Source: a virus (Duplodnaviria > Heunggongvirae > Uroviricota > Caudoviricetes). From it: a stretch of 24,666 bases of DNA. The stretch is taken from the IMG/VR virus record IMGVR_UViG_2687453297_000002, positions 1 through 24,666 of that record; one strand, given 5' to 3'. The notes under the pieces are model-generated. The model ran no database searches and had not been told where the DNA came from. It saw nothing but the letters and a program-made list of their open reading frames with translations. A program made the position numbers and the translations under genes. This document shows, in pieces, positions 1 through 19,043 of the stretch. The first letter of the stretch is position 1, and each line of letters opens with the position of its first letter.

Positions 1-854
1 TGGCATTATTACTGGAGCCACTGCAGTTCACCTTTATGAGTCACGCACTGCTGATTTCACTGGTAGTTTCCATACCCTGTGCGCTGCTGTCGGTCTTTCT
101 GGTCCTGAAAGGTTGGGCACTGATGGGTGACGCGATGAGTCATGCGGTTTTTCCTGGCATCGTGCTTGCCTGGATTCTGGGGTTACCTTTGGCTACAGGG
201 GCATTCGTCGCCGGAGTATTCTGCGCGGTGGCGACGGGATACCTGAAAGACAACAGCCGAATCAAGCAAGATACAGTGATGGGGATTGTTTTTTCTGGCA
301 TGTTTGCCGCAGGTCTGATCTTGTATATTGCAGTCAAACCAGACGTACATCTTGACCATATTCTTTTCGGCGACATGCTCGGGATAACCATCGGCGATAT
401 AATCCAGACGATGATTATTGCCGGGCTGGTTACACTTGTTATTAGCGTAAAATGGCGGGATTTTTTGCTGTTCAGCTTTGATTATCAACAGGCGCAGGTA
501 AGCGGTTTGCATACGAGATGGCTGCATTATGGGCTGCTGTGCATGGTCTCTCTGACCATTGTGGCGACGCTGAAAGCGGTAGGTATCATTCTCTCCATTT
601 CTCTGCTCATTGCGCCTGGCGCCATTGCGGTACTCCTGACACAACGCTTTCATATTGCGCTCCTACTGGCGACTGGCATATCGGTAATAGTGTCAATGAC
701 TGGTGTCTGGTTGTCCTTTTTTATCGACAGCGCACCAGCTCCGACGATTGTCGTCTTATTCGCGGTTTTGTTCATCATGACGTTTGCCGTTACCAGCATC
801 AACGCACGCAAAAAGGGAAACTCCCATACACAGGATCTGTTATCACCCAATTAG
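1..854 (+). CDS. sitD: Divalent-metal (Mn/Fe) ABC transporter permease, SitD-like; 5' end lies upstream of the window
   Basis: ORF 36..854 is a polytopic hydrophobic protein typical of the ZnuB/MntB/SitD permease family. The frame stays open back to position 3, and the upstream residues (LLEPLQFTF) look like the conserved N-terminus of this family, so the true start is probably outside the window. Symbol assigned from memory, not a search. Confidence 0.65.
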   Translation, partial: ALLLEPLQFTFMSHALLISLVVSIPCALLSVFLVLKGWALMGDAMSHAVFPGIVLAWILGLPLATGAFVAGVFCAVATGYLKDNSRIKQDTVMGIVFSGMFAAGLILYIAVKPDVHLDHILFGDMLGITIGDIIQTMIIAGLVTLVISVKWRDFLLFSFDYQQAQVSGLHTRWLHYGLLCMVSLTIVATLKAVGIILSISLLIAPGAIAVLLTQRFHIALLLATGISVIVSMTGVWLSFFIDSAPAPTIVVLFAVLFIMTFAVTSINARKKGNSHTQDLLSPN

Positions 855-945
855 CACAACATCCGAGGACAGCAACACCCGATACTTTTTCCTGGCTTCC
901 AGCAACGGGGTTTCTTCCTCCGTTGCATATACAGCTCACCTTTTT

Positions 946-1239
946 TCACCCACGATTAACCAACAGCCAGACCAGCAGACACGCCACCACCGGCACAGCA
1001 AAATCCATCAGGCTTGCCACATCCCAAGCACGCGGATCAAAACCGCCCCACCACGGCATATTCATTCGCTTGCCATGCCCGAACATTTCAATCCAGCGAT
1101 ATTCTGCCTGGGTATGTTCACGCGCAATGAAGAACGTACAACCGGCTATCGCTCCGTAAGCCCAGTTTCCGGTAAAAAGACCAACCAGTATCTGCGCAGC
1201 CACAGCACAAAGTGCATGAAGTAAGGGGCTTATATCCAT
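946..1239 (-). CDS. Hypothetical small membrane protein (two predicted TM segments, Trp/Gly-rich loop)
   Basis: 97-aa ORF with hydrophobic N- and C-terminal segments; lies 12 nt downstream of the 92-aa ORF on the same strand. No family recognised. Confidence 0.45.
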   Translation of the reverse strand: MDISPLLHALCAVAAQILVGLFTGNWAYGAIAGCTFFIAREHTQAEYRWIEMFGHGKRMNMPWWGGFDPRAWDVASLMDFAVPVVACLLVWLLVNRG

Positions 1240-1251
1240 TATTTCCTCCTT

Positions 1252-1530
1252 TCAGCTCCATTCCCGAAGCGGTGTTTCCAGCTCCACGACATAATCAGAG
1301 AATACAGAAACATCAAACAAGTCATCAAGAATGCGAATGTTGACAAAATAACCATCATTCCGGATACAGACAGGTTCTCCCTCTTCTGTTACCCCTGTTT
1401 CTGTGTAGGTGAAACCAATTTCATCAACTAACAGTTTATTCTGGAGGTCTTCATCTTCCGCCCAGCCAAGAGATGACAGGAAGGCCTTAAACTGCAGTTT
1501 GTCATGAAACTTCAAAGTTAAATCTTTCAT
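1252..1530 (-). CDS. Hypothetical small acidic protein, translationally coupled to the original tail-fibre 3' end
   Basis: 92-aa ORF. Its ATG (1530..1528) overlaps the TGA (1529..1527) that ends the reconstructed tail-fibre reading frame, giving an ATGA junction. Acidic composition; product unknown (possible fibre chaperone or accessory protein). Confidence 0.5.
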   Translation of the reverse strand: MKDLTLKFHDKLQFKAFLSSLGWAEDEDLQNKLLVDEIGFTYTETGVTEEGEPVCIRNDGYFVNIRILDDLFDVSVFSDYVVELETPLREWS

Positions 1531-1667
1531 ACGACCTCTTTTAATTGCCTGTCATTTAATTCTTTATGCCATATGCGGAAATTGCGAATATGGCCAAACA
1601 GATGTCGTTCTCCAGTATTCGTCTGCCCTCCAAATCGGATATTTTTATCAGCGGTCACGCCATTATA
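1527..1667 (-). pseudogene. stf: Displaced 3' end of the side-tail-fibre gene (last 43 codons plus stop), separated from the gene body by the IS66 insertion
   Basis: After conceptually removing 1668..4207, the 4196..6130 frame continues through 1659..1530 and stops at 1529..1527. The encoded tail (…GERHLFGHIRNFRIWHKELNDRQLKEVV) resembles the C-terminal strand of LamG/concanavalin-like lectin domains. Confidence 0.7.
1660..1667. repeat. Target-site duplication CCATTATA (left copy) of the IS66-family insertion
   Basis: Identical 8-mer at 1660..1667 and 4200..4207, immediately flanking the element termini. IS66-family elements make 8-bp duplications. Confidence 0.85.
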
Positions 1668-1697
1668 GTAAGCGTCAACGGAGCACCGTATTGACGC

Positions 1698-3311
1698 TTA
1701 TTTATTGGTGAGTACTACGTTCCATGGCAGGAGTTCGTCAACTCGGTTGGAAGGCCATTCCGGCAGTACGCTCAGGATATGGCGCAGATACGCTTCCGGA
1801 TCGATACCGTTCAGACGGCAGGTGCCGATCAGCCCGTACAACAGTGCTCCACGCTCGCCGCCGTGATCGCTGCCAAAGAACATAAAGTTTTTCTTTCCGA
1901 GACAGACTGCACGAAGCGCTCTTTCCGCAGCATTATTATCCGCCTCCGCCAGACCGTCATCACTGTAATAACAGAGGGCATCCCACTGATTCAGTACATA
2001 GCTGAACGCTTCGCCCAGTCTGGATTTTTTCGACAGCGTACCATTCTTCTCCACCATCCATTCATGCAGCGACGTCAGTAACACTTTGCTTCGCTGCTGC
2101 CTGACGGCAAGACGCTCTGACTCCGGTAATCCCCGTATTTCATCCTCGATGGCGTACAGTTCACTGATTCGCTTCAGGGCTTCTTCTGCCGTCGCACTTT
2201 TGCTGCTGATGTATACATCGTGGATTTTTCGCCGGGCATGGGCCCAGCACGCAACTTCTGTCAGTGCACCACCTTCACGTTCTGCACTGAACAACCTGTC
2301 GTAACCTGTGAACGCATCCGCCTGCAGGATACCCCGGAAGGGGCGGAGGTGTTGCTCCGGGTGTTTCCCCTGCCGGTTCGGCGAGTACGCGAACCAGACC
2401 GCTGGAGGAGATGACGAACCCACATTGCGATCATCCCGGACATACGTCCAGATACGCCCTGTTTTCGCCTTTTTCTGACCCGGTGCCAGTACCTTTACCG
2501 GTGTGTCATCAGTGTGAACCTTGCGGGTATTCATTACATAACGGTACAGGGCATCATTCACCGGTGTCATTAACTGGCAGCACGCGTCAACCCAGTTGGA
2601 GAGTAAGGCCCGGCTCAGTTCGACACCCTGGCGGGCAAAGATTTCACTCTGACGATACAGTGGCAGATGTTCGCAGTATTTTCCCGTTAACACGCGGGCA
2701 AGTAATCCGGGGCCCGCGATACCACGCTCTATCGGGCGGGACGGCGCCGGTGCTTCAACAATACAGTCACATTTTGTACAGGCTTTTTTTACCCGTTCTG
2801 TGCGGATCACTTTCAGGGCACTGCTCACCAGTTCCAGCTGTTCAGCGCTGACTTCCCCCAGATAATCCAGCTCACCGCCACACTCCGGGCAACAGCTTTC
2901 TTCTGGCTCCAGGCGGTGTATTTCACGGGGAAGGTGTGCCGGTAACGGACGACGATGGCGCGACTGTCGCAACTGGCGGGGAACCTGAGGATCGTCTTCC
3001 CGCCCACTGTAACGATCGCTGTCCTGTTCACGTTGTTTCAGCAGAGCCTCAGCCAGTTCAACTTCACGACGCAGTTTTTCAGAACGGGTACCGAACAGCA
3101 TCCGGCGCAGTTTTTCTATCTGAGCCCGCAGATGTTCTATTTCCCGTTCATCTTCTTCGATCTTTTCTTCGGCACGTGTCAGTGCAGAGCGCAGGAAGGC
3201 TTCCGTCTCTTCAACCAGACTCAGTTGCTGGTCTTTCTGACGGAGGGCTTCAGCCTGCTCAGAGAGCAACCTTTCCAGCTCTGCGATGCGAATGAGGTAT
3301 TTCTGACTCAT
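1698..3311 (-). CDS. IS66-family transposase (TnpC/Orf3)
   Basis: 537 aa with an N-terminal coiled-coil/leucine-zipper region, Cys cluster and DDE region characteristic of IS66 TnpC. Confidence 0.9.
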   Translation of the reverse strand: MSQKYLIRIAELERLLSEQAEALRQKDQQLSLVEETEAFLRSALTRAEEKIEEDEREIEHLRAQIEKLRRMLFGTRSEKLRREVELAEALLKQREQDSDRYSGREDDPQVPRQLRQSRHRRPLPAHLPREIHRLEPEESCCPECGGELDYLGEVSAEQLELVSSALKVIRTERVKKACTKCDCIVEAPAPSRPIERGIAGPGLLARVLTGKYCEHLPLYRQSEIFARQGVELSRALLSNWVDACCQLMTPVNDALYRYVMNTRKVHTDDTPVKVLAPGQKKAKTGRIWTYVRDDRNVGSSSPPAVWFAYSPNRQGKHPEQHLRPFRGILQADAFTGYDRLFSAEREGGALTEVACWAHARRKIHDVYISSKSATAEEALKRISELYAIEDEIRGLPESERLAVRQQRSKVLLTSLHEWMVEKNGTLSKKSRLGEAFSYVLNQWDALCYYSDDGLAEADNNAAERALRAVCLGKKNFMFFGSDHGGERGALLYGLIGTCRLNGIDPEAYLRHILSVLPEWPSNRVDELLPWNVVLTNK

Positions 3312-3341
3312 GACCGTTTTTATAATGCGGTCAGGAGTTTT

Positions 3342-3692
3342 TTACAACATTGTCAGTGAGTTACGGCTGGATGTTTTTGGCTGACGCCAGTCCAGCTTAT
3401 CGAGGAGCATTGCCAGTTGCGAGCGGGTAATGGATACCTTGCCGTCACGTACCGCAGGCCAGATAAACTGGCCTTCCTCCAGGCGTTTGGTGAACAGGCA
3501 CAGACCATCAGCATCAGCCCAAAGAATTTTGACGGTGTCACCCCGTCGGCCACGGAAGATAAACAGGTGACCGGAGAAGGGATTATCATTCAGCACATGT
3601 TGTACCTGTTCTCCCAGTCCGTTGAAGGATTTACGCATATCGGTAACGCCGGCAACGAGCCAGATACGGGTACCTGATGGGAGTGAGATCAT
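3342..3692 (-). CDS. IS66-family accessory protein TnpB (Orf2)
   Basis: 116 aa starting MISLPSGTRIWLVAGVTDMRKSFNGL…, recognised as the conserved IS66 Orf2. Overlaps tnpA by 4 nt. Confidence 0.9.
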   Translation of the reverse strand: MISLPSGTRIWLVAGVTDMRKSFNGLGEQVQHVLNDNPFSGHLFIFRGRRGDTVKILWADADGLCLFTKRLEEGQFIWPAVRDGKVSITRSQLAMLLDKLDWRQPKTSSRNSLTML

Positions 3693-4114
3693 CTTCCCCT
3701 CCCGGTCAGTTCACGGATCAACACTGTGAGCAGCTCTGGCGATGGATTTTCCAGCGTCATGTTACCGTGACGGAATTCCACCTTGCAGGAACTGGCACTG
3801 ACTCTGGTCTGAGTGGAAGTGGATAAAGACGGCGCAATGGCCGCCACAGGTTCTTTCTGCTCATCCGGCGTTATTTCTACAGGTAATAATTCAACGCCAG
3901 TGTCAGAAGAGGTCGTTACCGGAAGACGCCGCGAAACACGCCCTTCGTTCTGCCAGAGCCTGAGCCATTTGAAAATAACATTATCATTGACGCCATTTTC
4001 ACGTGCAATCTGTGCAACACAAGCTCCAGGTTGTGATGCCAGTTCCACCATACGAAGTTTGAATTCATTCGAATAGTTTTTACGAGGTTCTTTTCGCCAG
4101 TCCTGTAATTCCAT
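3689..4114 (-). CDS. IS66-family accessory protein TnpA (Orf1)
   Basis: 141 aa with a helix-turn-helix-like N-terminus (…NYSNEFKLRMVELASQPGACVAQIARENGVNDN…), typical of IS66 Orf1. Confidence 0.85.
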   Translation of the reverse strand: MELQDWRKEPRKNYSNEFKLRMVELASQPGACVAQIARENGVNDNVIFKWLRLWQNEGRVSRRLPVTTSSDTGVELLPVEITPDEQKEPVAAIAPSLSTSTQTRVSASSCKVEFRHGNMTLENPSPELLTVLIRELTGRGR

Positions 4115-4195
4115 ACTTAGATGTCCGTCTATATCAGATGGGCGTCTAAGTTACCAATTCTCGTCTGATGGCTACATACGGCGGTCAGTTTACGC

Positions 4196-6130
4196 TTACC
4201 CATTATATTCACAATAAACTTCATTAACCGCTTTACCATTTGTCACCACATGAAAGTGACCATCAGCTTTTGCAATACATCCAAATGTGGTTTTCTCTGC
4301 AAATACATCTGTCGCTGCGCTATTAACATACGAGCCTGAAGGGTTTGACAGACTCATATATAACTTACCACTACCTCTGTTGATTGCTGCAATTGCTGAT
4401 TGCCCGGTATTGGCTGCTATATCCCACACGCGGGGTGCGGCGTTTGGTGCAATATCCCAGTTTTTATGAATCTCAAGTAAAAAAGTAAATGGTAACTTAT
4501 AAAGATTATTTCTGGTGGGGATACTAACCAAATCACTGGCTCTTGTCGTTGCGCTGCCTCCTGAAATAATAAATGATGATACACACGGCCCATTCTCTAC
4601 TTGTGGGGTGGCAAGATAAATATAGTCACCAGATACTGTTGCCCCACCCTGCTCAGGAGAATACTGTATCTGAGAGCCTATTTTTAACTCACCATCAATT
4701 GCCTGAATCGTTGCCTCTGCAAAAATCCAGCCCGTGGTCTTATCCTTCCTGACTCGTGCCGTAATTCTGCCGGCAGCACCACCTGTCATATTAATTTCAA
4801 GCGTTTGCGTATCAATGTACGCATCGCCAAGAAAAGTTGTTGCACTACCATCATACTTATCAAACCGTATACGTAACCTTACCTGTCGTTCTGTTTTAAA
4901 ACGGCATGAGGTTGTCACGTACTTGTTATCGCCTGAGACATCAACTGACTTTGTTGCAGCAATTGATGCCATATTAATAGCCGAAGTTTGCCCAACCAGA
5001 GAATCGTTGCAGACAAACTTTCCATAAGTAAAACCAAAACTATCCGTCCCAGTTTCGGGCACATCCATGTTTGATGACTTCCCCCAGCTGGCTGGACTTT
5101 CCGAATTGAGCATGTAGTTCGTTCTTTGTCCCTCAATAAGCAGGCCATCACACTCAAATCGCGGCTCATTAATTTCCGCCGTTTTCAGTTCGCCAGATTT
5201 GTTGATATATGTTGCCGTTGATGCGCGACTGAAATTAACCTGTTTATCACTGGCGACCTGAACCACATCGTCACCAATAGCTATTTTTTTATAGCCCGGA
5301 GAAAAACCCGCAATCATATCCAGTGAATCGTTAAACGGTATCCACACATCAGGCAGCGGCGGCACTATATTCGCATAGGGCTCTGCAGTCACTTCCGCTG
5401 CGGCTTCTGCGCGGTCTGCCGCCTTTTCAGCTCGTGTCGCTGCCGACAGAGCCTCATCCTTTTTCTGCCCGGCCTTTGTTGCGTCTGCTGCAGCCTCCCG
5501 CGCTTTTGTGGTGGCGACTCCGGCATTTTCAGCGGCTGACTCTGCATTACGGCGGGAAGCCTCTTCACTGTCTGCGGAGGCTTCTTCTGACGCACGGGCA
5601 TTTGTCTCTGAACGTTCTGCCGCTGTTGCTGCGTTTTGTGCGGCTGTTTTTGAAGAAGCTGCCGCTTTCGCGCTGTTACCTGCATTCGTCTCTGATGTTT
5701 TCGCCGCGTTCCTGGACGATGCCGCTGCTGTTTCTGATTTCTTTGCTGCCGCTGCGCTCTGAGAGGCGGCTTCAGCGTTGCGTGCCACATCCTCCACCAT
5801 TACCTCAAAACGACGCAATGCCTCCGGCATGACATCCTCTTCCGTCATGGCCCCCAGAAAATCATTCAGCGTCCCCGGCTTAGAATCCTCATACACGGTG
5901 ATGGTCCCGGCATGTGAAGGCGGAAAACCTTCAACCAGCAGGATAACGCTGTACTGGCCATACTCGACATCCATGCTGTAACGTCCGGCTTCATCCGGAT
6001 TTTCTGAGGCCACCGTGTTCACCACAACCGTGGTGCTGTTACGTTTTGCTTTGAGCTGAATGGTGCAGTTCTGTATCGGTTTTCCTGCACCGTCTTTCAG
6101 CACGCCTGAAATCTGTACTGCCATATTCAC
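4196..6130 (-). pseudogene. stf: Lambda Stf-like side tail fibre, 3'-truncated by IS66 insertion (reads into the IS inverted repeat and stops after one IS-derived codon)
   Basis: N-terminus MAVQISGVLKDGAGKPIQNCTIQLKAKRNSTTVVVNTVASENPDEAGRYSMDVEYGQYSV… closely resembles lambda Stf (from memory), followed by an Ala/Ser-rich repetitive shaft. The stop codon at 4198..4196 lies inside the IS66 terminus. Confidence 0.8.
4200..4207. repeat. Target-site duplication CCATTATA (right copy) of the IS66-family insertion
   Basis: Exact copy of 1660..1667. Confidence 0.85.
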
Positions 6131-6185
6131 TCCACAAATAAAAAAGGCGCCATTTCTGGCACCCGTATCTGGGTTATAAAATTCA

Positions 6186-6308
<123 letters not shown>

Positions 6309-6340
6309 TTAGTGTATGATGGTGTTTTTGAGGTGCTCCA

Positions 6341-6616
6341 GTGGCTTCTGTTTCTATCAGCTGTCCCTCCTGTTCAGCTACTGACGGGGTGGTGCGTAAC
6401 GGCAAAAGCACCGCCGGACATCAGCGCTATCTCTGCTCTCACTGCCGTAAAACATGGCAACTGCAGTTCACTTACACCGCTTCTCAACCCGGTACGCACC
6501 AGAAAATCATTGATATGGCCATGAATGGCGTTGGATGCCGGGCAACCGCCCGCATTATGGGCGTTGGCCTCAACACGATTTTCCGCCATTTAAAAAACTC
6601 AGGCCGCAGTCGGTAA
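6341..6616 (+). CDS. insA: IS1 InsA (transposition repressor)
   Basis: 91 aa [43 protein letters not shown]…, the canonical InsA zinc-finger protein. Confidence 0.95.
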
Positions 6617-7038
6617 CCTCGCGCATACAGCCGGGCAGTGACGTCATCGTCTGCGCGGAAATGGACGAACAGTGGGGATACGTCGGGGCTAAATCGCGCC
6701 AGCGCTGGCTGTTTTACGCGTATGACAGGCTCCGGAAGACGGTTGTTGCGCACGTATTCGGTGAACGCACTATGGCGACGCTGGGGCGTCTTATGAGCCT
6801 GCTGTCACCCTTTGACGTGGTGATATGGATGACGGATGGCTGGCCGCTGTATGAATCCCGCCTGAAGGGAAAGCTGCACGTAATCAGCAAGCGATATACG
6901 CAGCGAATTGAGCGGCATAACCTGAATCTGAGGCAGCACCTGGCACGGCTGGGACGGAAGTCGCTGTCGTTCTCAAAATCGGTGGAGCTGCATGACAAAG
7001 TCATCGGGCATTATCTGAACATAAAACACTATCAATAA
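6535..7038 (+). CDS. insB: IS1 InsB reading frame (expressed as InsAB' transposase by -1 frameshift)
   Basis: 167-codon open frame overlapping the insA 3' end; carries the canonical IS1 InsB sequence. Confidence 0.9.
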
Positions 7039-7120
7039 GTTGGAGTCATTACCGATTAGATGAATATTTATCGCGCAGTGACATCATTTTTTAATAATAG
7101 TTCAAAAAAAAGGGCGTACA

Positions 7121-8203
7121 ATGAAAAAATTAACAGTGGCAATTTCTGCTGTAGCTGCATCAGTACTGATGGCGATGTCTGCTCAGGCAGCTGAAATTTA
7201 TAATAAAGACAGTAACAAGCTGGATCTATACGGGAAAGTTAATGCCAAGCACTACTTCTCCTCTAATGATGCAGATGATGGTGATACTACTTATGCCCGT
7301 CTTGGCTTCAAAGGTGAAACCCAAATCAACGATCAACTGACTGGTTTCGGTCAGTGGGAATATGAATTCAAAGGCAACCGTGCTGAATCTCAAGGTTCTT
7401 CCAAAGACAAAACCCGTCTTGCATTTGCAGGCCTGAAATTTGGTGATTACGGCTCAATCGATTACGGCCGTAACTACGGTGTAGCATACGACATCGGTGC
7501 GTGGACTGACGTCCTGCCAGAATTCGGTGGTGATACCTGGACCCAAACAGATGTGTTCATGACTGGTCGCACTACTGGTGTTGCAACTTATCGTAACAAC
7601 GACTTCTTTGGTCTGGTCGATGGCCTGAACTTTGCTGCTCAGTATCAGGGTAAAAATGACCGCACTGACGTAACTGAAGTCAATGGTGATGGTTTCGGTT
7701 TCTCCACTACTTATGAGTATGAAGGATTCGGCGTGGGTGCAACCTATGCTAAATCAGATCGCACTGACGGTCAGGTCGCCTATGGTAAGAGCAAATTCAA
7801 TGCCTCCGGCAAAAATGCGGAAGTATGGGCTGCAGGCCTGAAATATGATGCGAACAATATCTATCTGGCTACCACATATTCTGAAACTCAGAATATGACC
7901 GTTTTTGGTAATAACCATATTGCAAACAAAGCACAAAACTTTGAAGCAGTAGCACAATATCAGTTTGACTTCGGTCTGCGACCATCTGTTGCTTACCTTC
8001 AGTCAAAAGGTAAAGACCTTGGTGTTCATGGTGACCGAGACTTAGTCAAGTATGTCGATGTCGGTGCTACTTACTACTTTAATAAAAACATGTCCACTTT
8101 TGTTGATTACAAAATCAACTTAATTGACGATAGTAAGTTTACCAAAACAGCTGGTATTGATACCGACGACATCGTCGCTGTAGGTCTGGTTTATCAGTTC
8201 TAA
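7121..8203 (+). CDS. nmpC: Phage-encoded OmpC/OmpF-family general porin (NmpC/Lc-like), apparently intact
   Basis: 360 aa with signal peptide [23 protein letters not shown], beta-barrel porin motifs and the C-terminal …VGLVYQF. Near-identical to NmpC/Lc as I recall it. Antisense to the Q/late transcription direction, as nmpC is in DLP12. Confidence 0.85.
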
Positions 8204-10712: not shown

Positions 10713-11756
10713 ATGAAAATTAACAAGATATTATCATCTGCAACACTATTGTATGGTATGTCAATGGCCATGTCGGTCGGGAGTTGTGCAACACCTGTCC
10801 AGACTAATCTTCCTGGTTACACCCCGGGTGCAGATATCATTAGTGTTTCACCGACCAGAAACCAGGTCGATCTCATTGGTGATGTTGTTTATTCCCAGAT
10901 AAAAGGAACTCGTTCTGTCAGACAGCTTCACATGTCAGTTCTTGTCCCGCGAACAAATGATTTAAAACCAGCCATTATTTATTATCCCGGCGGCGGATTC
11001 ATGTCTTCTGAACATGACAAATTTATTGAAATGAGAATGGCTCTGGCAGAAGCTGGTTTTGTTGTGGCCGCTGTAGAATACAGAACAATTCCTGATACAT
11101 TTCCAGCACCAGTTGAGGATGGAAAAGCTGCAATACGTTACCTGAGAGAGCATGCCAGCAATTATGGGATTGATCCTCAAAGAATCGGAGTTCTGGGTGA
11201 CTCTGCCGGTGGATGGCTTGCCCAGATGATGGGAACTACAAATGGTGACAAAACCTTTGATAAAGGTGACTTTCTTCAGCAATCCTCAGATGTTCAGGCA
11301 GTTGCCACACTTTATGGGATTTCTGACTTGTTGAATATTGGCGAGGGGTTCCCTGAATCAGTGCAGGAGGTTCATCGCTCTCCTGCCGTAACCGAAGCCT
11401 TAATGATCAATGGCCCTGCATTCAGAAATTTTGCGGGAGCCCCCATCACAGCGTCAAAAGAAAAAGCGCTAAACGCCAGTCCAATCGGACATATGAAAGG
11501 AGTAAAACCCCCATTTCTTATTATGCATGGTAGCAAAGACACTCTGGTTTCACCTGAGCAAAGCGCCAAACTATTCAGGATGTTGAAGAAGAACGGTGAT
11601 AACGCTGAGTACGTGCTGGTAGAAGGGGCCGAGCATGGCGATAATACATGGTATCAGCCAATTATTATAAACAGAGTTGTTGAGTGGTTTACTAAAAACC
11701 TGGGAACCCCCATAAAAACCGCTACCCAACAACAAAAAACAAACGCTGACCTGTAA
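10713..11756 (+). CDS. Secreted or lipoprotein alpha/beta-hydrolase (esterase/lipase, GDSAGG nucleophile motif); cargo gene
   Basis: 347 aa with an N-terminal signal peptide and possible lipobox (…MAMSVGSCATP), GDSAGG serine motif, and downstream Asp and His (…HGSKD…, …AEHGD…). Opposite strand to the flanking phage genes; AT-rich upstream region. Confidence 0.7.
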   Translation: MKINKILSSATLLYGMSMAMSVGSCATPVQTNLPGYTPGADIISVSPTRNQVDLIGDVVYSQIKGTRSVRQLHMSVLVPRTNDLKPAIIYYPGGGFMSSEHDKFIEMRMALAEAGFVVAAVEYRTIPDTFPAPVEDGKAAIRYLREHASNYGIDPQRIGVLGDSAGGWLAQMMGTTNGDKTFDKGDFLQQSSDVQAVATLYGISDLLNIGEGFPESVQEVHRSPAVTEALMINGPAFRNFAGAPITASKEKALNASPIGHMKGVKPPFLIMHGSKDTLVSPEQSAKLFRMLKKNGDNAEYVLVEGAEHGDNTWYQPIIINRVVEWFTKNLGTPIKTATQQQKTNADL

Positions 11757-11761
11757 AAAGC

Positions 11762-11781
11762 AGCCCGCACTTATGCGGGCT
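11762..11781. terminator. Hairpin after the esterase gene; terminator candidate, possibly bidirectional
   Basis: Stem AGCCCGCA / TGCGGGCT with loop CTTA. Preceded by AAAAAG (T-run on the minus strand) and followed by AACCTATTT. Confidence 0.45.
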
Positions 11782-12105
11782 AACCTATTTCACTCGATTC
11801 AAAAGAAATTATTTTTAATGGGGGCGTGACCAGCCTCTCGGTGCTCAGATACTTAATGAAGTGGAGTGGCATTCTGGCAAGAGGTTAACATCACCTGTTC
11901 GCCATAACCAAGCACGTGCACAAAGTTTGTTATCAGTGAATTGTTTTGTGATTGGGTATTGTTGAGCTACTAGAGCAAGAATGCCAACATCCAGTGACAG
12001 TGCCTATAGTAAAACTATAGCTCAGGGCGCTTCGTTCAAGATAGTTAATATCATATTAGTTACTTTACTTTCATACCATAGCACGGTTGAAAAAGTGATT
12101 ATTAC

Positions 12106-13632
12106 TCAAAAATAAACCTCACCATCAACCATATATTTAAGAGTACTTATCGCCTGCTGGGCGGATATTACTTTCATTAAAGGATAGTGTTTAAAAACAA
12201 TGCCATTCATAAAATAGATATCACAGGTTTTATTATCTGTATTAATTATAATTTTTTCGAATATTTTATAGGCAAGTGTACGACATAGCTCTCGCCCATT
12301 TTTACTGGTTAAATCAATAGCATGAAAATCACCAAGTGAACTCACCCCTTTACTCTTCAAAGTTTTTAATGATACCGAAGCCCTTCGTAATTCCTTATCT
12401 AATAGTCTTATTTTCTCTGCTATAGCGGTAACTTCAGGCGCGACAGACAATGCAACGATTAAATTATTAATTTTCATCTGAAGCTCAATAATTTTTAACT
12501 CTAAAGTTTCATTAGCATCTTTCTTGTTTTCAACTGGTTGAATTTTGCTACAATTAAAAAGCAATTCATTAATGATATTATAATCAACCAAATCTCTTTT
12601 TATTGATGGCCTGTCACATCGATGTAATCTTCTCATCGGACAAACATAATAGCCATGCAAACGTCCAGATACCGCATGAACAATCATGGTATTACCACAA
12701 GCCTCACACTTCATAACTGTTCGAAGTAGATTTATTAGCATAGGATTCTTGCTACTATTGCTAATACCAAAAGGTGCCAACCGAATTTCCTGTACAGCGT
12801 AAAACAAATCATCTGATATGACTCTGGGATAATAGCCAGCGATTTCACTTATCCCTTTCCCTCTTGCACGATATGAAGGTACGCATATACCTATCAGAGC
12901 TTTATTCGCTAATAATTTTTCAATTACAGAAGGCCCCCATGCACTTTCTTTTCCTGAAAAATTTTTTACAGCATGATCATTTAAATACTTAGCTATTGCA
13001 TTCAATGATCGCCTTTCCATCCTGAGTTTAAAAATTAGCTCAATCGTTTTCACCCTGTCGGGGTCTGGAATAAAAGCTGTTCTTTTGTCATCCAATGAGA
13101 GCCATCTCGGACAAGACGCCGTCATAATCGTGCCTGATTCCAGTGCATCCTGCCGTTTTTTCTTCCATGATAATTTAACCCGACTTGACTTTATCTCGCT
13201 TTCTTCATTTGCCCTTTGTGCTATAAGTATGGCTTTTATTAATGAATATGGCTCATTCAATGAGTCTATATTATAGACTGTATTATCGCAAAGAGTTATA
13301 ACATCAATACCGTGATTCAAAATCAATTTCAGACGCTCAATCGCTTCACCGACTTTTTCTCTTGAAAGTCTGTCCAGACTTTCAACTAACAATGTAGTCC
13401 CTGGCAATATGTAACCATGTTCTATAGCATCTAAAAATTCCGAAAAAGCTCCTGATTGTGCATGCTTTCCATTGAATGCGCTTAACCCCAAATCTTCATA
13501 CGTTACGGTATCAAGGTAATAATCACTATTTACCTTTAGCCATTCAGTAATAAGCCTTCTCTGGCGGTTTAATGAATCACCAGACATCTGACCTGGTGAT
13601 GAAAATCGCATATATGCTATGGCTTTTTTCAT
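12106..13632 (-). CDS. ybcK: Large serine recombinase (resolvase/invertase catalytic domain plus recombinase and zinc-ribbon domains), YbcK-like
   Basis: 508 aa. N-terminus AIAYMRFSSPGQ… with …LDRLSR… motifs of the serine-recombinase catalytic domain, and a C-terminal Cys cluster (CEACGNTM…YYVCPMRRLHRCD). Same length and position as DLP12 YbcK as recalled. Confidence 0.8.
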   Translation of the reverse strand: MKKAIAYMRFSSPGQMSGDSLNRQRRLITEWLKVNSDYYLDTVTYEDLGLSAFNGKHAQSGAFSEFLDAIEHGYILPGTTLLVESLDRLSREKVGEAIERLKLILNHGIDVITLCDNTVYNIDSLNEPYSLIKAILIAQRANEESEIKSSRVKLSWKKKRQDALESGTIMTASCPRWLSLDDKRTAFIPDPDRVKTIELIFKLRMERRSLNAIAKYLNDHAVKNFSGKESAWGPSVIEKLLANKALIGICVPSYRARGKGISEIAGYYPRVISDDLFYAVQEIRLAPFGISNSSKNPMLINLLRTVMKCEACGNTMIVHAVSGRLHGYYVCPMRRLHRCDRPSIKRDLVDYNIINELLFNCSKIQPVENKKDANETLELKIIELQMKINNLIVALSVAPEVTAIAEKIRLLDKELRRASVSLKTLKSKGVSSLGDFHAIDLTSKNGRELCRTLAYKIFEKIIINTDNKTCDIYFMNGIVFKHYPLMKVISAQQAISTLKYMVDGEVYF

Positions 13633-13887
13633 GGTGACACCTGCTAAAGTATGCTTTTATAAACCTTAGTGGTGAGATATGATTTTTGTTTAATTTTTAT
13701 TTAAAAAGACAATTAAGGTCACATTATCTTGAATATACAACAATAATCGTATTGCAATTTTCTTACACCATGGTCTTGAAAGATCAAAAGAATGAATAAA
13801 AACTAAAGACATTAACAAAAAGCATAAAACGAGGCCCATACAAATATACGAACCTCCATATTTTAGTCGTTTAAAAATAAATTATTT

Positions 13888-14220
13888 TTAATGTGGTGTG
13901 CTTCGTGACAATAAATTAATAACCAACACACCGGCACAAATCAACATCATGCCTATAATGGCTGGCAGGTCCAACCGTTGGCCGAAAAATCCCCATGATA
14001 GTAAGCTAATCAGGACAATACCGACTCCTGACCAGATAGCATAAGCAATCCCTGTAGGTATATAAGCCAGCGTCTGAGCTAATAACCAGAATGATGCACA
14101 ATAACAAATAATTGTACCAACAGATGGCCATAACCGTGTAAAACCTTCTGAAAACTTCATTAAGGTTGTACCAATGACCTCTGCAAGTATTGCACCACCA
14201 AGATAAATATAAGGGTTCAT
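13888..14220 (-). CDS. emrE: Small multidrug resistance (SMR) efflux transporter EmrE
   Basis: 110 aa from the ATG at 14220 (MNPYIYLGGAILAEVIGTTLMKFSEGF…), matching EmrE; the listed ORF has an 18-codon upstream extension. Confidence 0.9.
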   Translation of the reverse strand: MNPYIYLGGAILAEVIGTTLMKFSEGFTRLWPSVGTIICYCASFWLLAQTLAYIPTGIAYAIWSGVGIVLISLLSWGFFGQRLDLPAIIGMMLICAGVLVINLLSRSTPH

Positions 14221-14287
14221 AGCATATTCTTTCCTGTTCAAACTGGAGAGAATTGTACTACAGTTTGAACTCAACTCACCTGTTTCA

Positions 14288-15288: not shown

Positions 15289-16214
15289 AAATCCACCCCG
15301 TAAATCCAGTCAGTGTTTGTCAGGTCGAGTTTTGATTTTCCGGCTGTCACGCCAGCCTGTTGCTTGTTACGGTTGATTTCGAGTTGAGTCCACTTGTCGC
15401 GGAGTTTGGCCGGACTCAGCACGTTACCGGACCAGAAGTTGTCCTGGCATGCCCAGCGGAACAGCACGCACATGTCGCGGTGGTTACGTCCGTCACGTTC
15501 ACGCATCAGGCGGATATCGTTAGCCCACCCTGCAAAATTTGGTTTTCTGGCTGATGGCGCGATGGTCTTCACCATGTCAAACATCCACTCTGCGGCGGTC
15601 AGGTCTTCTGCTGTCCCCCACTTGCTGCCGCTCTGAATTGCAGCATCCGGTTTCACCACAGGAAGATCGTTTTCTGGCTGGTCAGAGGATTCGTCAGAAT
15701 TCTCGGACGAAAAAGGTTTTATATTGTCTTTTGTTAGTTTGTCTTTTGTGTTTACCTGATTCGGGTAAACGCCTTTACCTGATTTGGGTAAACTTTTCTT
15801 ACCTGATTCAGGTAAATTTACCTCTTTCAGGTAAACTTTATTTTTCTTACCTGATTCGGGTAATGTTGACCATTCACTGACCACATTATTAATGCCGATA
15901 TTCCGCCCGCTCTGAATAAAAATCCCACGCTTTACCAGAACACTTTTTGCAGCAGAACACTTGTGCGGCAATATCCCGGTCAACTCGGAAAGTTGCTCGT
16001 TGCTCACCCAATCCAGTTTTTTATTAAAGCCATATGTTTTGCGCATGACAGCCAGGAAGACCAGAAGCTGGTGCTGTGTTAATCCGGCCAGCATCACAGC
16101 TTCCAGCAACTCATTTGCAATGCGCGTATAACCATCATCGAGATCTGCCACGCGCGGCTCCTTTTGTGCCACATCCGGCACTGGAAAATTGAATATCTCA
16201 GCAGTGTTTGCCAT
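15285..16214 (-). CDS. O: Replication initiator O-like protein; gene contains the origin iterons
   Basis: From the ATG at 16214 (GGGAGG upstream): MANTAEIFNFPVPDVAQKEPRVADLDDGYTRIANELLEA…, resembling the lambda O N-terminus. The listed ORF extends to an alternative ATG at 16304 that overlaps the upstream gene stop; the true start is uncertain. Confidence 0.8.
   Translation of the reverse strand: MANTAEIFNFPVPDVAQKEPRVADLDDGYTRIANELLEAVMLAGLTQHQLLVFLAVMRKTYGFNKKLDWVSNEQLSELTGILPHKCSAAKSVLVKRGIFIQSGRNIGINNVVSEWSTLPESGKKNKVYLKEVNLPESGKKSLPKSGKGVYPNQVNTKDKLTKDNIKPFSSENSDESSDQPENDLPVVKPDAAIQSGSKWGTAEDLTAAEWMFDMVKTIAPSARKPNFAGWANDIRLMRERDGRNHRDMCVLFRWACQDNFWSGNVLSPAKLRDKWTQLEINRNKQQAGVTAGKSKLDLTNTDWIYGVDL
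15752..15863. repeat. Five iterons (TTACCTGATTCGGGTAA-like, each an internal inverted repeat) inside the O gene, with an adjacent AT-rich tract: candidate replication origin
   Basis: Copies at 15752, 15775, 15799, 15818 and 15847 (17 bp each, 0-3 mismatches), spaced 19-29 bp. AT-rich region at about 15711..15750 on the downstream side relative to O transcription, mirroring lambda ori organisation. Confidence 0.75.
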
Positions 16215-16300
16215 AATTCCTCCCGCAATGAGTGTGTTACGATTTGCACCTGAAAGTCGGTTCTGTTCGCGCAGACCGGCTTTCGCCATTTCCGAACCTG

Positions 16301-16846
16301 TCATATTGCCCCCAGCATGGTGGTGACCATCGCCATCAGTGGACCAGCCAGATCCGGGTCCACACGAAACATCGACACAATGCCTTCACTCATCTCCTTC
16401 AGTTTCTGGTGGCGTGGTGCGTTGAGAATGACAGCCTGTTTTGCCTCACTGAGTTCCTTTTCCATTTCAGCCAGCCGAGCCATGAAGCTATCCTGCTCAA
16501 CCAGGTGGCCGCGATATTCCAGCGGTAGTACCGCCAGAATTGCCGGGGTCAGTTCACGCACGTTATTTCGGTATTTTTCAGAATCGAATTTGTTATCGAG
16601 GAAGCGGAACAGCTTCTGGCGTGCACGGCTGACATCATCAGGAAAATCGATGGTGCCGCCGCCCTGCTCCCGATACTCATTCACAATGAGTGCGGCAACA
16701 ACATCCTGATTATCTGCAGCCGACCAGGCGCGAACGGCATCACGGATTTTTTCGTGGCCTGGCGCCTGTTTTGTTTGAGAACGATTTATCACCGCAGTCG
16801 GGCTAAATCCGCTAGTCTGTTGGTATGTAAGTGGTTGCATAGTCAT
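16301..16846 (-). CDS. Hypothetical early-operon protein in the cII position (possibly YdaT-family regulator)
   Basis: 181-aa ORF directly downstream of the Cro-like gene and upstream of O. Not lambda CII by sequence; the family guess comes from position and vague resemblance only. Confidence 0.4.
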   Translation of the reverse strand: MTMQPLTYQQTSGFSPTAVINRSQTKQAPGHEKIRDAVRAWSAADNQDVVAALIVNEYREQGGGTIDFPDDVSRARQKLFRFLDNKFDSEKYRNNVRELTPAILAVLPLEYRGHLVEQDSFMARLAEMEKELSEAKQAVILNAPRHQKLKEMSEGIVSMFRVDPDLAGPLMAMVTTMLGAI

Positions 16847-16870
16847 TGCCTTATCAGTTAACGCCGCAGA

Positions 16871-17098
16871 TTAGGCGGCAGAATTACTCGCGTTAAACAA
16901 TGGTGCGAGGTCGGGACGAATATCTGCTGGTTTAATCTTTCCACCAGTGGCTGAGACAATTTTCATTACATAGCGGGCATCAATTCCGCCACCGTGTAGC
17001 CAACGCCAAACAGTGGGCTGGGCTACACCGCATAGATCTGCCAGTCGTTTTTGACTACCTGTAATACTGATTGCGAGTTGAATGGTTTGATTTGTCAT
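16871..17098 (-). CDS. Cro-like small HTH regulator (YdaS/Cro type)
   Basis: 75 aa, divergent from the repressor gene. Its HTH (…LADLCGVAQPTVWRWL…) shares the motif GVAQPT-x-WR with the repressor HTH (…LAKASGVAQPTIWRLT…). Confidence 0.65.
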   Translation of the reverse strand: MTNQTIQLAISITGSQKRLADLCGVAQPTVWRWLHGGGIDARYVMKIVSATGGKIKPADIRPDLAPLFNASNSAA

Positions 17099-17208
17099 TA
17101 TTAATTCCTATTGGTATTACAATGAATAAATAATAGCAATGCGTATTAATCATAACAATAGCAAAACGTGTTTTGACCATCAATACGCAAGCGTATAAAT
17201 TAAAACTT
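17099..17208. promoter_or_regulatory. Divergent promoter/operator region between the Cro-like and CI-like genes (OR analogue)
   Basis: AT-rich 110-bp intergenic region containing AATAGCAATGCGTATTA (17132..17148), AACAATAGCAA (17154..17164) and the inverted repeat ATACGC-AA-GCGTAT (17183..17196). The first two motifs recur in the OL-like region. Confidence 0.6.
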
Positions 17209-17901
17209 ATGAAAAAAGAAACTCTTGCTGATCGCTTAAACCTAGCGATGGAACAATCTGGAATGTCTCAAGGCGCTCTTGCAAAGGCGTCTGGCGTAGC
17301 TCAACCCACAATCTGGAGACTGACAAGCGGCAACGCGCGCGGCTCAACAAAAATTGTTGAAATAGCTAATGCATTGGGTGTTCGAACAGAGTGGCTCTCA
17401 TCAGGCATAGGCCCGATGAGAAATGACGGTCAACAATTAGGGAAGCCTACTGCCAACCATCCCAAATACTTCAAGATTGACGTTCTTGATATAGAAGTGA
17501 GTGCCGGGCCGGGAGTCATCAACCGTGAGTTTGTAGAAGTTCTACGCTCGGTTGAGTACTCGTTTGACGATGCTCGTCACATGTTCGATGGTAGGAAGGC
17601 AGAAAATATCCGCATCATTAACGTACGCGGTGACAGCATGTCAGGAACGATTGAACCTGGTGATCTTCTATTCGTTGATATCACGGTTAAATCTTTCGAC
17701 GGTGATGGTATCTATGCGTTTCTGTACGACGACACAGCCCATGTAAAGCGCCTGCAAATGATGAAGGATAAGCTGCTGGTTATCTCTGATAACAAAAGCT
17801 ACTCACCGTGGGACCCGATCGAGAAAGATGAGATGAACCGGGTATTTATCTTCGGGAAAGTTATTGGGAGCATGCCGCAGACGTATAGGAAGCATGGATA
17901 G
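17209..17901 (+). CDS. CI-like prophage repressor (HTH_XRE N-domain plus LexA-like S24 autopeptidase C-domain)
   Basis: 230 aa from the ATG at 17209 (MKKETLADRLNLAMEQSGMSQGALAKASGVAQPTIWRL…). The C-terminal domain carries a Ser (…RGDSMSGTI…) and Lys (…VKRL…) arrangement typical of S24 self-cleaving repressors. The listed ORF begins at an upstream TTG. Confidence 0.85.
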   Translation: MKKETLADRLNLAMEQSGMSQGALAKASGVAQPTIWRLTSGNARGSTKIVEIANALGVRTEWLSSGIGPMRNDGQQLGKPTANHPKYFKIDVLDIEVSAGPGVINREFVEVLRSVEYSFDDARHMFDGRKAENIRIINVRGDSMSGTIEPGDLLFVDITVKSFDGDGIYAFLYDDTAHVKRLQMMKDKLLVISDNKSYSPWDPIEKDEMNRVFIFGKVIGSMPQTYRKHG

Positions 17902-17981
17902 TACCAATTAAAAATTATCAACCGGGCATTGTGCTCATTCAGTAAAACAACTTAATTATTCATTTTAGAATGGAGAACTTA

Positions 17982-19043
17982 ATGGATACTTTAAAATATG
18001 AGAAATTCTCTGATTTTGATCACAATGACCCATTTTTTGACTCTTTAAAAAAAGATTATAAAGAGTTTCCTCTTTGGTTAGAAAAAAAAGCCAGAGAAGG
18101 AGAATCAGCTTATGTGCTCTATGATGACAAGCATAAAATCGAAGGTTTTATGTATCTAAAAGAAAATGATGATGCAAATGACATTAATCCAGCGCTCCCA
18201 CCAGGACGTCATCTAAAGATAGGAACATTCAAATTTGAATCTAAAGGCACCCTTCGCGGACAACGATTTCTAAAAAAAGCGTTTGACCATGCATTTTCAT
18301 CAAAATCTGATGATATTTATGTTACTGTTTTCGACAAACACGTCCATCTAATAAAACTTTTCCAAACGTACGGATTTTACATTCATGGTGAAAAAGAAAC
18401 ACATAACGGGAAAGAGTTTGTATATGCGAGGTCTTTGCATGAGCCTTATGGTGATATTTTATTAGATTACCCTCGAATAATGACATCAAGGGCCAACAAA
18501 TATTTACTGGCGATTTATCCCGAATATCACACTAGACTATTCCCTGATTCAAAACTTGTAAATGAATCACCAGATATTGTCAAAGATATATCCCATGCTA
18601 ACAGCATTCATAAAATTTACATATGTGGAATGCGTTCTGTGATGGGAATGAAAAGAGGAGATATCATTGTCATCTATAGAACCGGAGACAAAAAAGGGCC
18701 AGCTCGCTATCGTTCTGTAGCCAGTACATTATGTGTAGTTGAGAGCGTAAAAAATATTTCTGAATTTTTAAGCGAAGATAGTTTTGTAGACTATTGTATT
18801 CGTTTTAGCGTATTTTCTGAAGATGAACTCAGAAAAATCTATAAAGAACGTCGATACCCTTTCATTATAAGATTCACATACAATCTGTCTTTGCCAAAGA
18901 GACCCAATCGTGCTATTTTAATAGATCATGTGGGGCTAAATGGTTCGCGTGCATTCCGATGGAGTCACTTTAAACTCACAAATGAGCAGTTCTTAAAGAT
19001 CATCGAGTTAGGCAAGATAAATGAAAGTTTTATTATCCATTAA
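17982..19043 (+). CDS. Hypothetical two-domain protein in the rexA position: N-terminal GNAT-like fold, C-terminal PUA-like (ASCH/EVE-like) region
   Basis: 353 aa from the ATG at 17982 (GGAG 8 nt upstream; the listed ORF starts 4 codons earlier). N-terminal region shows a GNAT-like pattern (…LKIGTFKFESKGTLRGQRFLKKAFDHAF…IYVTVFDKHVHLIKLFQTYGFYIHGEK). C-terminal region (…KYLLAIYPEYHTRLF…MKRGDIIVIYRTGD…RSVASTLCVVESV…) resembles PUA-like domains. Domain calls are by eye and need HHpred or structure prediction. Confidence 0.5.
   Translation: MDTLKYEKFSDFDHNDPFFDSLKKDYKEFPLWLEKKAREGESAYVLYDDKHKIEGFMYLKENDDANDINPALPPGRHLKIGTFKFESKGTLRGQRFLKKAFDHAFSSKSDDIYVTVFDKHVHLIKLFQTYGFYIHGEKETHNGKEFVYARSLHEPYGDILLDYPRIMTSRANKYLLAIYPEYHTRLFPDSKLVNESPDIVKDISHANSIHKIYICGMRSVMGMKRGDIIVIYRTGDKKGPARYRSVASTLCVVESVKNISEFLSEDSFVDYCIRFSVFSEDELRKIYKERRYPFIIRFTYNLSLPKRPNRAILIDHVGLNGSRAFRWSHFKLTNEQFLKIIELGKINESFIIH

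Follow-up and report, generated by a model that had tools for sequence, protein, structure and literature searches.

The laboratory strain of bacteriophage lambda, lambda PaPa, reportedly lacks side tail fibres through a frameshift in the side-tail-fibre gene stf, while Ur-lambda is said to possess them. Lambda PaPa is a lambdoid phage which forms plaques with a broken stf gene. An interrupted stf gene, the product of which shares a homologous Stf N-terminal domain (PF08400) with that of lambda, is encoded in the window analysed here, which comprises the whole 24,666-nucleotide stretch of the Caudoviricetes record IMGVR_UViG_2687453297_000002 (IMG/VR). The lesion in this locus is an insertion of the IS66-family insertion sequence (IS) ISEc23 near the 3' end of stf rather than a frameshift, and lambda Stf-C and Tfa are unrelated to the GTA-spike-fibre-like and LamG-like domains and the 92-amino acid (aa) partner protein of the fibre in the window. 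The gene order J–stf–92-aa–97-aa–sitDCBA is shared between the window and phage 21 (OL657228, CPT_21_22), ev017, mEp460_4F5, PhiR63_2 and Perceval, and the fibre C-terminus and the ATGA overlap with the following gene in these phages are identical to those obtained when the insertion is removed in silico. The fibre gene is, however, uninterrupted in phage 21 and its relatives, whereas in the window the IS divides the gene in two and J has been lost. Taken as a whole, the locus very probably reflects the insertion of ISEc23 in the stf gene of a phage-21-like prophage carrying the sit genes, the resultant truncation of the fibre, the spread of this allele and a later IS1-associated deletion.

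The ISEc23 element is a complete 2532-bp copy located at positions 1668..4199, with its genes oriented as the fibre gene on the minus strand, and is flanked by exact copies of the octamer CCATTATA at 1660..1667 and 4200..4207, exactly as an initial annotation of this DNA had placed them. Many E. coli copies annotated as 'IS66-like element ISEc23' in RefSeq, located on plasmids as well as chromosomes, match it along its full length at 100% identity, and it is these annotated copies, rather than the ISfinder entry, that serve as the reference for its identity. The termini form imperfect inverted repeats which start with GTAAGCG and are identical at 20 of the first 24 bases. Three IS66-type open reading frames (ORFs) are encoded on the minus strand in the order tnpA-tnpB-tnpC. 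The tnpA gene (3689..4114), which is annotated as such in E. coli SE15, codes for a 141-aa IS66 accessory protein (PF01527 HTH_Tnp_1, E 5e-12) and overlaps tnpB (3342..3692), coding for a 116-aa IS66 Orf2-like protein (PF05717, E 1e-36), in an ATGA motif. The 537-aa DDE transposase encoded by tnpC (1698..3311; PF03050, E 9e-98) also contains the further IS66 domains zf-IS66 (zinc finger, PF13005), LZ_Tnp_IS66 (leucine zipper, PF13007) and DDE_Tnp_IS66_C (PF13817). In its tnpA-tnpB-tnpC genes, GTAAGCG termini, 8-bp duplication and identity over 2532 bp the element is thus the same as ISEc23 elsewhere, and its sole peculiarity is its location within a phage side-tail-fibre gene. It is near certain that the insertion was made by IS66-type transposition with duplication of an 8-bp target.

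The truncated side-tail-fibre gene (stf', 4196..6124, minus strand) extends from an ATG at position 6124 through 642 codons to a TAA at 4198-4196, which lies in the IS terminus, as the initial annotation had noted. At the junction, which reads …AAT GGG TAA GCG…, the first G of the IS completes a glycine codon and the next IS bases constitute the stop codon. The product is a protein of 642 aa with the C-terminus …CEYNG, to which no foreign residues are appended, and it is near certain that the stop codon provided by the IS terminus gives a clean truncation. The detached 3' end of stf (1527..1659, minus strand) consists of the last base of the split glycine codon, 43 codons and a TGA. When ISEc23 and one copy of the repeat are deleted in silico, the frame joins this 1659-1527 segment and gains VTADKNIRFGGQTNTGERHLFGHIRNFRIWHKELNDRQLKEVV, and its stop codon (TGA) shares the motif ATGA with the start codon of the 92-aa ORF, in agreement with the reconstruction proposed previously. 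The length of 687 aa given for the restored protein pertains only to an upstream GTG at 6130, while 685 aa are encoded from the ATG annotated in the homologues. Precise removal of the IS near certainly restores the conserved C-terminal end of the fibre.

The empty site occurs in other genomes. E. coli A13 is 100% identical to window positions 1-1667 and 4200-6285, with the two matches overlapping by exactly 8 bases, and its site (…GGTCACG CCATTATA TTCACAA…) contains one copy of the octamer only, which bears out the earlier view that the flanking octamers are a target-site duplication. Of 5426 complete E. coli genomes, 452 contain the reconstructed 801-bp empty site as a single uninterrupted match. 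Phage 21 encodes an intact 686-aa 'side tail fiber' which agrees with the reconstructed protein at 675 of 686 aligned positions and shares its last 60 residues, and this gene is likewise overlapped by a 92-aa gene. The C-terminus …KELNDRQLKEVV is found in 88 of the 120 best homologues, the peptide encoded by the detached end is identical in these homologues and in phage 21, and the profile of the fibre family phrog_1419 (PHROG) is aligned through its very last position. The ends of the uninterrupted homologues thus coincide exactly with that of the reconstruction. At L001 4268-6325 and L002 6529-8457, the RefSeq annotation (PGAP) gives the single in-frame 685-aa fibre ORF as two overlapping features, one labelled 'phage head spike fiber domain-containing protein' and the other a pseudogene labelled 'prophage tail fiber N-terminal domain'. 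As both the window and A13 show one continuous frame, this split is an annotation artefact and not a frameshift.

The fibre protein comprises several distinct domains. The lambdoid Stf N-terminal domain (PF08400, E 5e-69) occupies residues 1-131 and is followed by a predicted helix of ~130 residues rich in Ala, Ser and Glu. Residues ~329-529 match the NCBIfam family GTA_spike_fiber (NF048003, E 9e-15), and residues ~300-548 can be aligned with the RcGTA head spike fibre Rcc01080 of Rhodobacter capsulatus (PDB 6tb9, E 7e-10). The likeness to Rcc01080 is confined to the middle domain of the fibre; Rcc01080 is without a LamG-like tip and sits on the capsid rather than the tail. Residues 561-680 match the Pfam family Laminin_G_3 (PF13385) at threshold level only, over profile positions 28-149 of 151; the whole protein scores 24.4 bits and the domain by itself 27.6 bits, the cut-off being 27.6 bits, and the precomputed Pfam hits list PF13385 for the proteins P0057 and P0088. 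When the PDB was searched with the tip by sequence and by profile, no LamG relative was retrieved, the RcGTA fibre being the sole match, at the domain boundary. The AlphaFold model of the full-length protein (P0002, 35-row alignment) has a mean pLDDT of 51.8, with values of 40-64 across the tip, and is too poor to use, while the 182-aa tip modelled alone has a mean pLDDT of 59.8, which is usable but modest. In this low-confidence model, the tip forms a two-sheet jelly-roll superposable on solved concanavalin-A-like and LamG members, including the NanA CBM40, botulinum toxin Hcn, pentraxin and laminin G domains, with which it shares 9-18% identity. The borderline sequence match together with the strong fold match of a low-confidence model supports a putative LamG/concanavalin-A-like jelly-roll tip, and is consistent with the fold suggested in the initial annotation.

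On the basis of the tip model, the 43 lost residues would make up ~29% of this domain, with two strands, one of them short and the other formed by HIRNFRIW, and a terminal helix; DSSP places a strand at 163-169 and a helix at 175-181 within the deleted part. The predicted loss of a terminal beta-strand is thus retained, although more than this strand would have been removed. Among relatives with 47-54% identity over the 182-aa tip, the residues IR.GGQ..G.RHLFGH.RN.R.WHK.L.D are invariant, in contrast to a hypervariable domain centre, and the lost residues may represent the conserved scaffold end of the distal jelly-roll domain. Without them the receptor-binding tip would be unable to fold, rendering the side fibre non-functional. 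It is likely that the insertion has inactivated the distal fibre domain and that phages tolerate the lesion because their side fibres are accessory.

The same junction between the IS and the fibre gene is present in 124 of the 5426 complete E. coli genomes, SE15 among them, and in five named phage isolates represented by six database records (4A7, 4C10, 1W, 3W and D2), which contradicts the notion of an insertion private to this genome. Window positions 900-6285, including the IS, are 100% identical in the deposited genomes of Lambda_4C10, 4A7, 1W and 3W, as is the truncated stf gene of these four phages. In phage D2 the truncated end (…CEYNG) is the same but the stf N-terminus differs, which indicates that recombination took place after the insertion. 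With this distribution, the allele predates the genome containing the window. Its description as recent is borne out by the absence of decay in the repeats and the IS, but is at odds with an allele common to 124 genomes and five phages. Phages 4C10 and 4A7 derive from the COPSAC collection, the sequenced phages of which are temperate and were obtained from strain supernatants or viromes (PMC6969025), and both plaque on E. coli C after induction (bioRxiv 10.64898/2026.05.26.727859). As these phages form plaques, the broken fibre is compatible with an infectious phage. The IS is not mentioned in the main text of the COPSAC phage paper, and a literature search, which covered the ISEc23 papers at the level of titles and abstracts, found no paper discussing an ISEc23 insertion in this fibre gene. 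ISEc23, the fibre gene family and this kind of disruption are nevertheless already known, and the allele is contained in public annotated records, including a RefSeq phage genome.

Several points weigh against a loss of fibre function and a single origin of the allele. We infer the former from sequence, and the GTA-spike-fibre-like domain in the middle of the protein (329-529) is untouched by the insertion and may retain the ability to fold or bind. The two structure models are of low confidence, and the Pfam LamG match lies just at its threshold. The single origin is deduced from the identical site, orientation and sequence rather than from a phylogeny of the 124 genomes. A truncated fibre which still works through its middle domain, with the LamG-like tip as an optional extra, would be in keeping with the native residues 1-642 and their clean end, the remaining N-terminal anchor and coiled coil, the homology of the middle domain to the RcGTA head spike fibre and the viability of the allele-bearing phages. 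This is nonetheless unlikely, as a jelly roll reduced to ~70% and lacking the conserved strands that close it would sooner misfold than remain inert, and side fibres that are dispensable on the rough strain C explain the viability of these phages equally well. A further reading, with octamers alike by chance, a natural fibre end close to residue 642 and no relation of the downstream 133 nt to the gene, has nothing in its favour beyond the prior possibility of such a match at two fixed positions (p = 1.5e-5), which is irrelevant given that the empty site exists in other genomes. With the empty site found at 100% identity in A13 and the restored C-terminus conserved in the homologues, this reading is refuted and its probability is negligible.

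The distribution of the allele could also be accounted for by repeated independent insertions at a hotspot, in that ISEc23 appears to be active, with identical copies at 5-10 matching places in each of the chromosome records listed. However, the position, orientation and duplication are the same throughout, the 5.4 kb comprising the element and its flanks is 100% identical in SE15 and four phages, and no strict site specificity is known for IS66-family elements, which makes recurrent insertion highly improbable. Somewhat less remote, but still improbable, is the selection of the allele, either because loss of the tip alters the host range or prevents trapping on the surface of the lysogen itself, or, as a variant considered jointly with it, because the IS changes how the 92-aa and 97-aa genes, or the sit genes, are expressed. 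Its persistence in 124 complete genomes and several independently isolated phages, and its recombination onto a different stf N-terminus in D2, would accord with selection. The counts, however, also fit hitch-hiking in a successful clone with 6-10 matches to the IS/fibre junction probe in each chromosome record listed, empty sites outnumber occupied ones more than threefold (452 genomes), and there is no promoter or terminator signal above shuffled expectation. One ancestral insertion, presumably neutral and spread by descent, infection and recombination, is thus the favoured origin of the allele.

The 92-aa gene (1252..1530, minus strand; phrog_1361, E 3e-42, unknown function), the ATG of which overlaps the fibre TGA in the restored locus, codes for a probable partner of the fibre tip. 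The third member of the module, the 97-aa gene (946..1239, minus strand; phrog_1443, E 2e-58), codes for a putative membrane protein, annotated in phage 21 as 'putative membrane protein, 2 TMDs'. The 4-nt overlap between the fibre and 92-aa genes is conserved in all four of the other contexts compared, namely phage 21, a P2-like myovirus prophage and two lambdoid variants with diverged tips. In the P2-like prophage the same distal cassette is found on a P2 gpH-type N-terminus, with a 74-aa Caudo_TAP remnant downstream. The 92-aa protein shares 90%, 62% and 54% identity with the window copy in the loci L006, L008 and L009, respectively, in parallel with the fibre tip (last 182 aa; 87%, 48% and 49%), while the identity of the 97-aa protein is 79%, 90% and 94%. 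In these three comparisons, divergence of the fibre tip is accompanied by that of the 92-aa protein but not by that of the 97-aa protein, suggesting that the 92-aa protein may be a tip-specific partner, such as an assembly chaperone. No significant match to either protein was found in Pfam, NCBIfam or the PDB. No Tfa-type assembly chaperone (Caudo_TAP) is encoded after the fibre gene in the window, the downstream 92-aa protein being without this domain, and the latter may represent an unrelated analogue of Tfa. The initial annotation regarded the 92-aa gene as uncoupled by the insertion. The overlap, conserved elsewhere, has indeed been lost, but the gene retains the Shine-Dalgarno sequence AAGAGG, 5 nt before its ATG, on its own side of the IS, and uncoupling therefore need not silence its translation. 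A promoter and terminator scan of positions 850-6300 gave nothing above the shuffled expectation and is uninformative on read-through from the IS.

The distal fibre domains and the 92-aa and 97-aa genes move as one cassette (window 946-1530 and 4196-5360; L006 3001-5369, L008 2501-5142 and L009 2501-6246). This cassette starts at the invariant motif PLPDVWIPFNDSLDM, and the N-terminus which precedes it is of the lambda Stf type in siphovirus prophages and of the P2 gpH type in one myovirus prophage. In L009 a 346-aa Peptidase_S74 protein is encoded between the 93-aa and 97-aa genes (4870-5910). Peptidase_S74 is the intramolecular-chaperone type of endosialidase-like fibres. Cytolethal distending toxin genes (CDtoxinA and the cdtB-like Exo_endo_phos) follow the fibre/92-aa/96-aa module in L008 (5641-7067), where they occupy the position of sitABCD in the window, and the site downstream of the fibre module looks like a general cargo slot. 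The sitD gene is located at window positions 1-854 and sitABCD is also found in L003 (5506-8955). In phage 21 and 4A7, sitABCD constitutes phage cargo between the fibre module and the attachment site, and these genes have been reported in 70% of the lambda-like isolates of one collection (Mathieu et al. 2020).

Comparison of the window with phage 4A7 shows two matching segments, to 4A7 positions 24988-18704 (100%) and 46391-28778 (99.994%), with a 768-bp IS1 between them. The IS1 (6286..7053, plus strand), which lacks a target duplication, marks a deletion of 21.5 kb, and the ~21.5 kb absent relative to 4A7 includes the holin, endolysin, spanin, cos, terminase, head and tail genes, as well as the tail tip gene J save for 103 nt. 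This remnant (6183..6285, minus strand) represents the last 103 nt of J, which is located at 15408-18806 in 4A7, with window position 6285 corresponding to 4A7 18704, and is linked through the IS1 to a site located 67 bp upstream of the porin gene of the prophage (flanks 6183-6285 and 7054-8203). The stf gene is situated directly downstream of J in 4A7, phage 21, A13, L008 and L009, of which arrangement only these last 103 nt of J are kept in the window. The junction of the fibre, IS1 and porin regions is found in no complete RefSeq E. coli genome. The prophage in the window is a dead remnant with stf::ISEc23, the 92-aa and 97-aa genes and sitABCD, and since the virion module including J has been deleted, the fibre truncation is without phage-level consequence here. 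The replication-to-Q interval (10713-14274) contains accessory genes according to the 4A7 annotation, coding for an esterase (10713-11756), a 508-aa recombinase-family protein (12106-13632, minus strand) and a QacE-like SMR protein (~13888-14220, minus strand).

In the proposed history, ISEc23 transposed into the 3' end of stf in a viable phage-21-like lambdoid phage or prophage carrying sitABCD (Bievrevirus, 4A7 type), where it duplicated the 8-bp target CCATTATA and, through its GTAAGCG terminus, provided an immediate in-frame TAA. The gene has since encoded residues 1-642 of 685, with the putative closing part of the jelly-roll tip lost, and its stop codon no longer overlaps the start of the 92-aa gene, placed 2.5 kb away with its own ribosome-binding site. 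From what was probably one ancestral insertion the allele spread by descent, infection and recombination, and it is probably tolerated as the side fibres are accessory. Subsequently, in the lineage of the window, an IS1-associated deletion removed the region between a point upstream of the porin gene and the end of J. As the ISEc23 allele is found in viable phages and the IS1 junction in this lineage, the insertion is placed first and the deletion later.

A catalogued IS in a catalogued phage gene represents an ordinary disruption and adds little to the understanding of the mechanism, while its junction is a clean marker by which one family of prophages and phages with the sit genes can be traced. 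Insertion sequences are thought to be rare in infectious phage genomes, and the intact ISEc23 in the deposited genomes of 4A7, 4C10, 1W, 3W and D2 would constitute a documented route for its transfer between strains. The allele-bearing phages are furthermore natural mutants without the tip of this fibre type. It is conceivable, though doubtful, that a plaque-forming temperate Bievrevirus lineage (4A7, 4C10, 1W, 3W and D2) stably packages an active IS66-family element within its own side-tail-fibre gene and moves ISEc23 between E. coli strains, with the loss of the LamG-tipped fibre kept by selection through a changed host range or avoidance of self-adsorption. If true, such a lineage would be a natural counterpart of the stf lesion in laboratory lambda PaPa.

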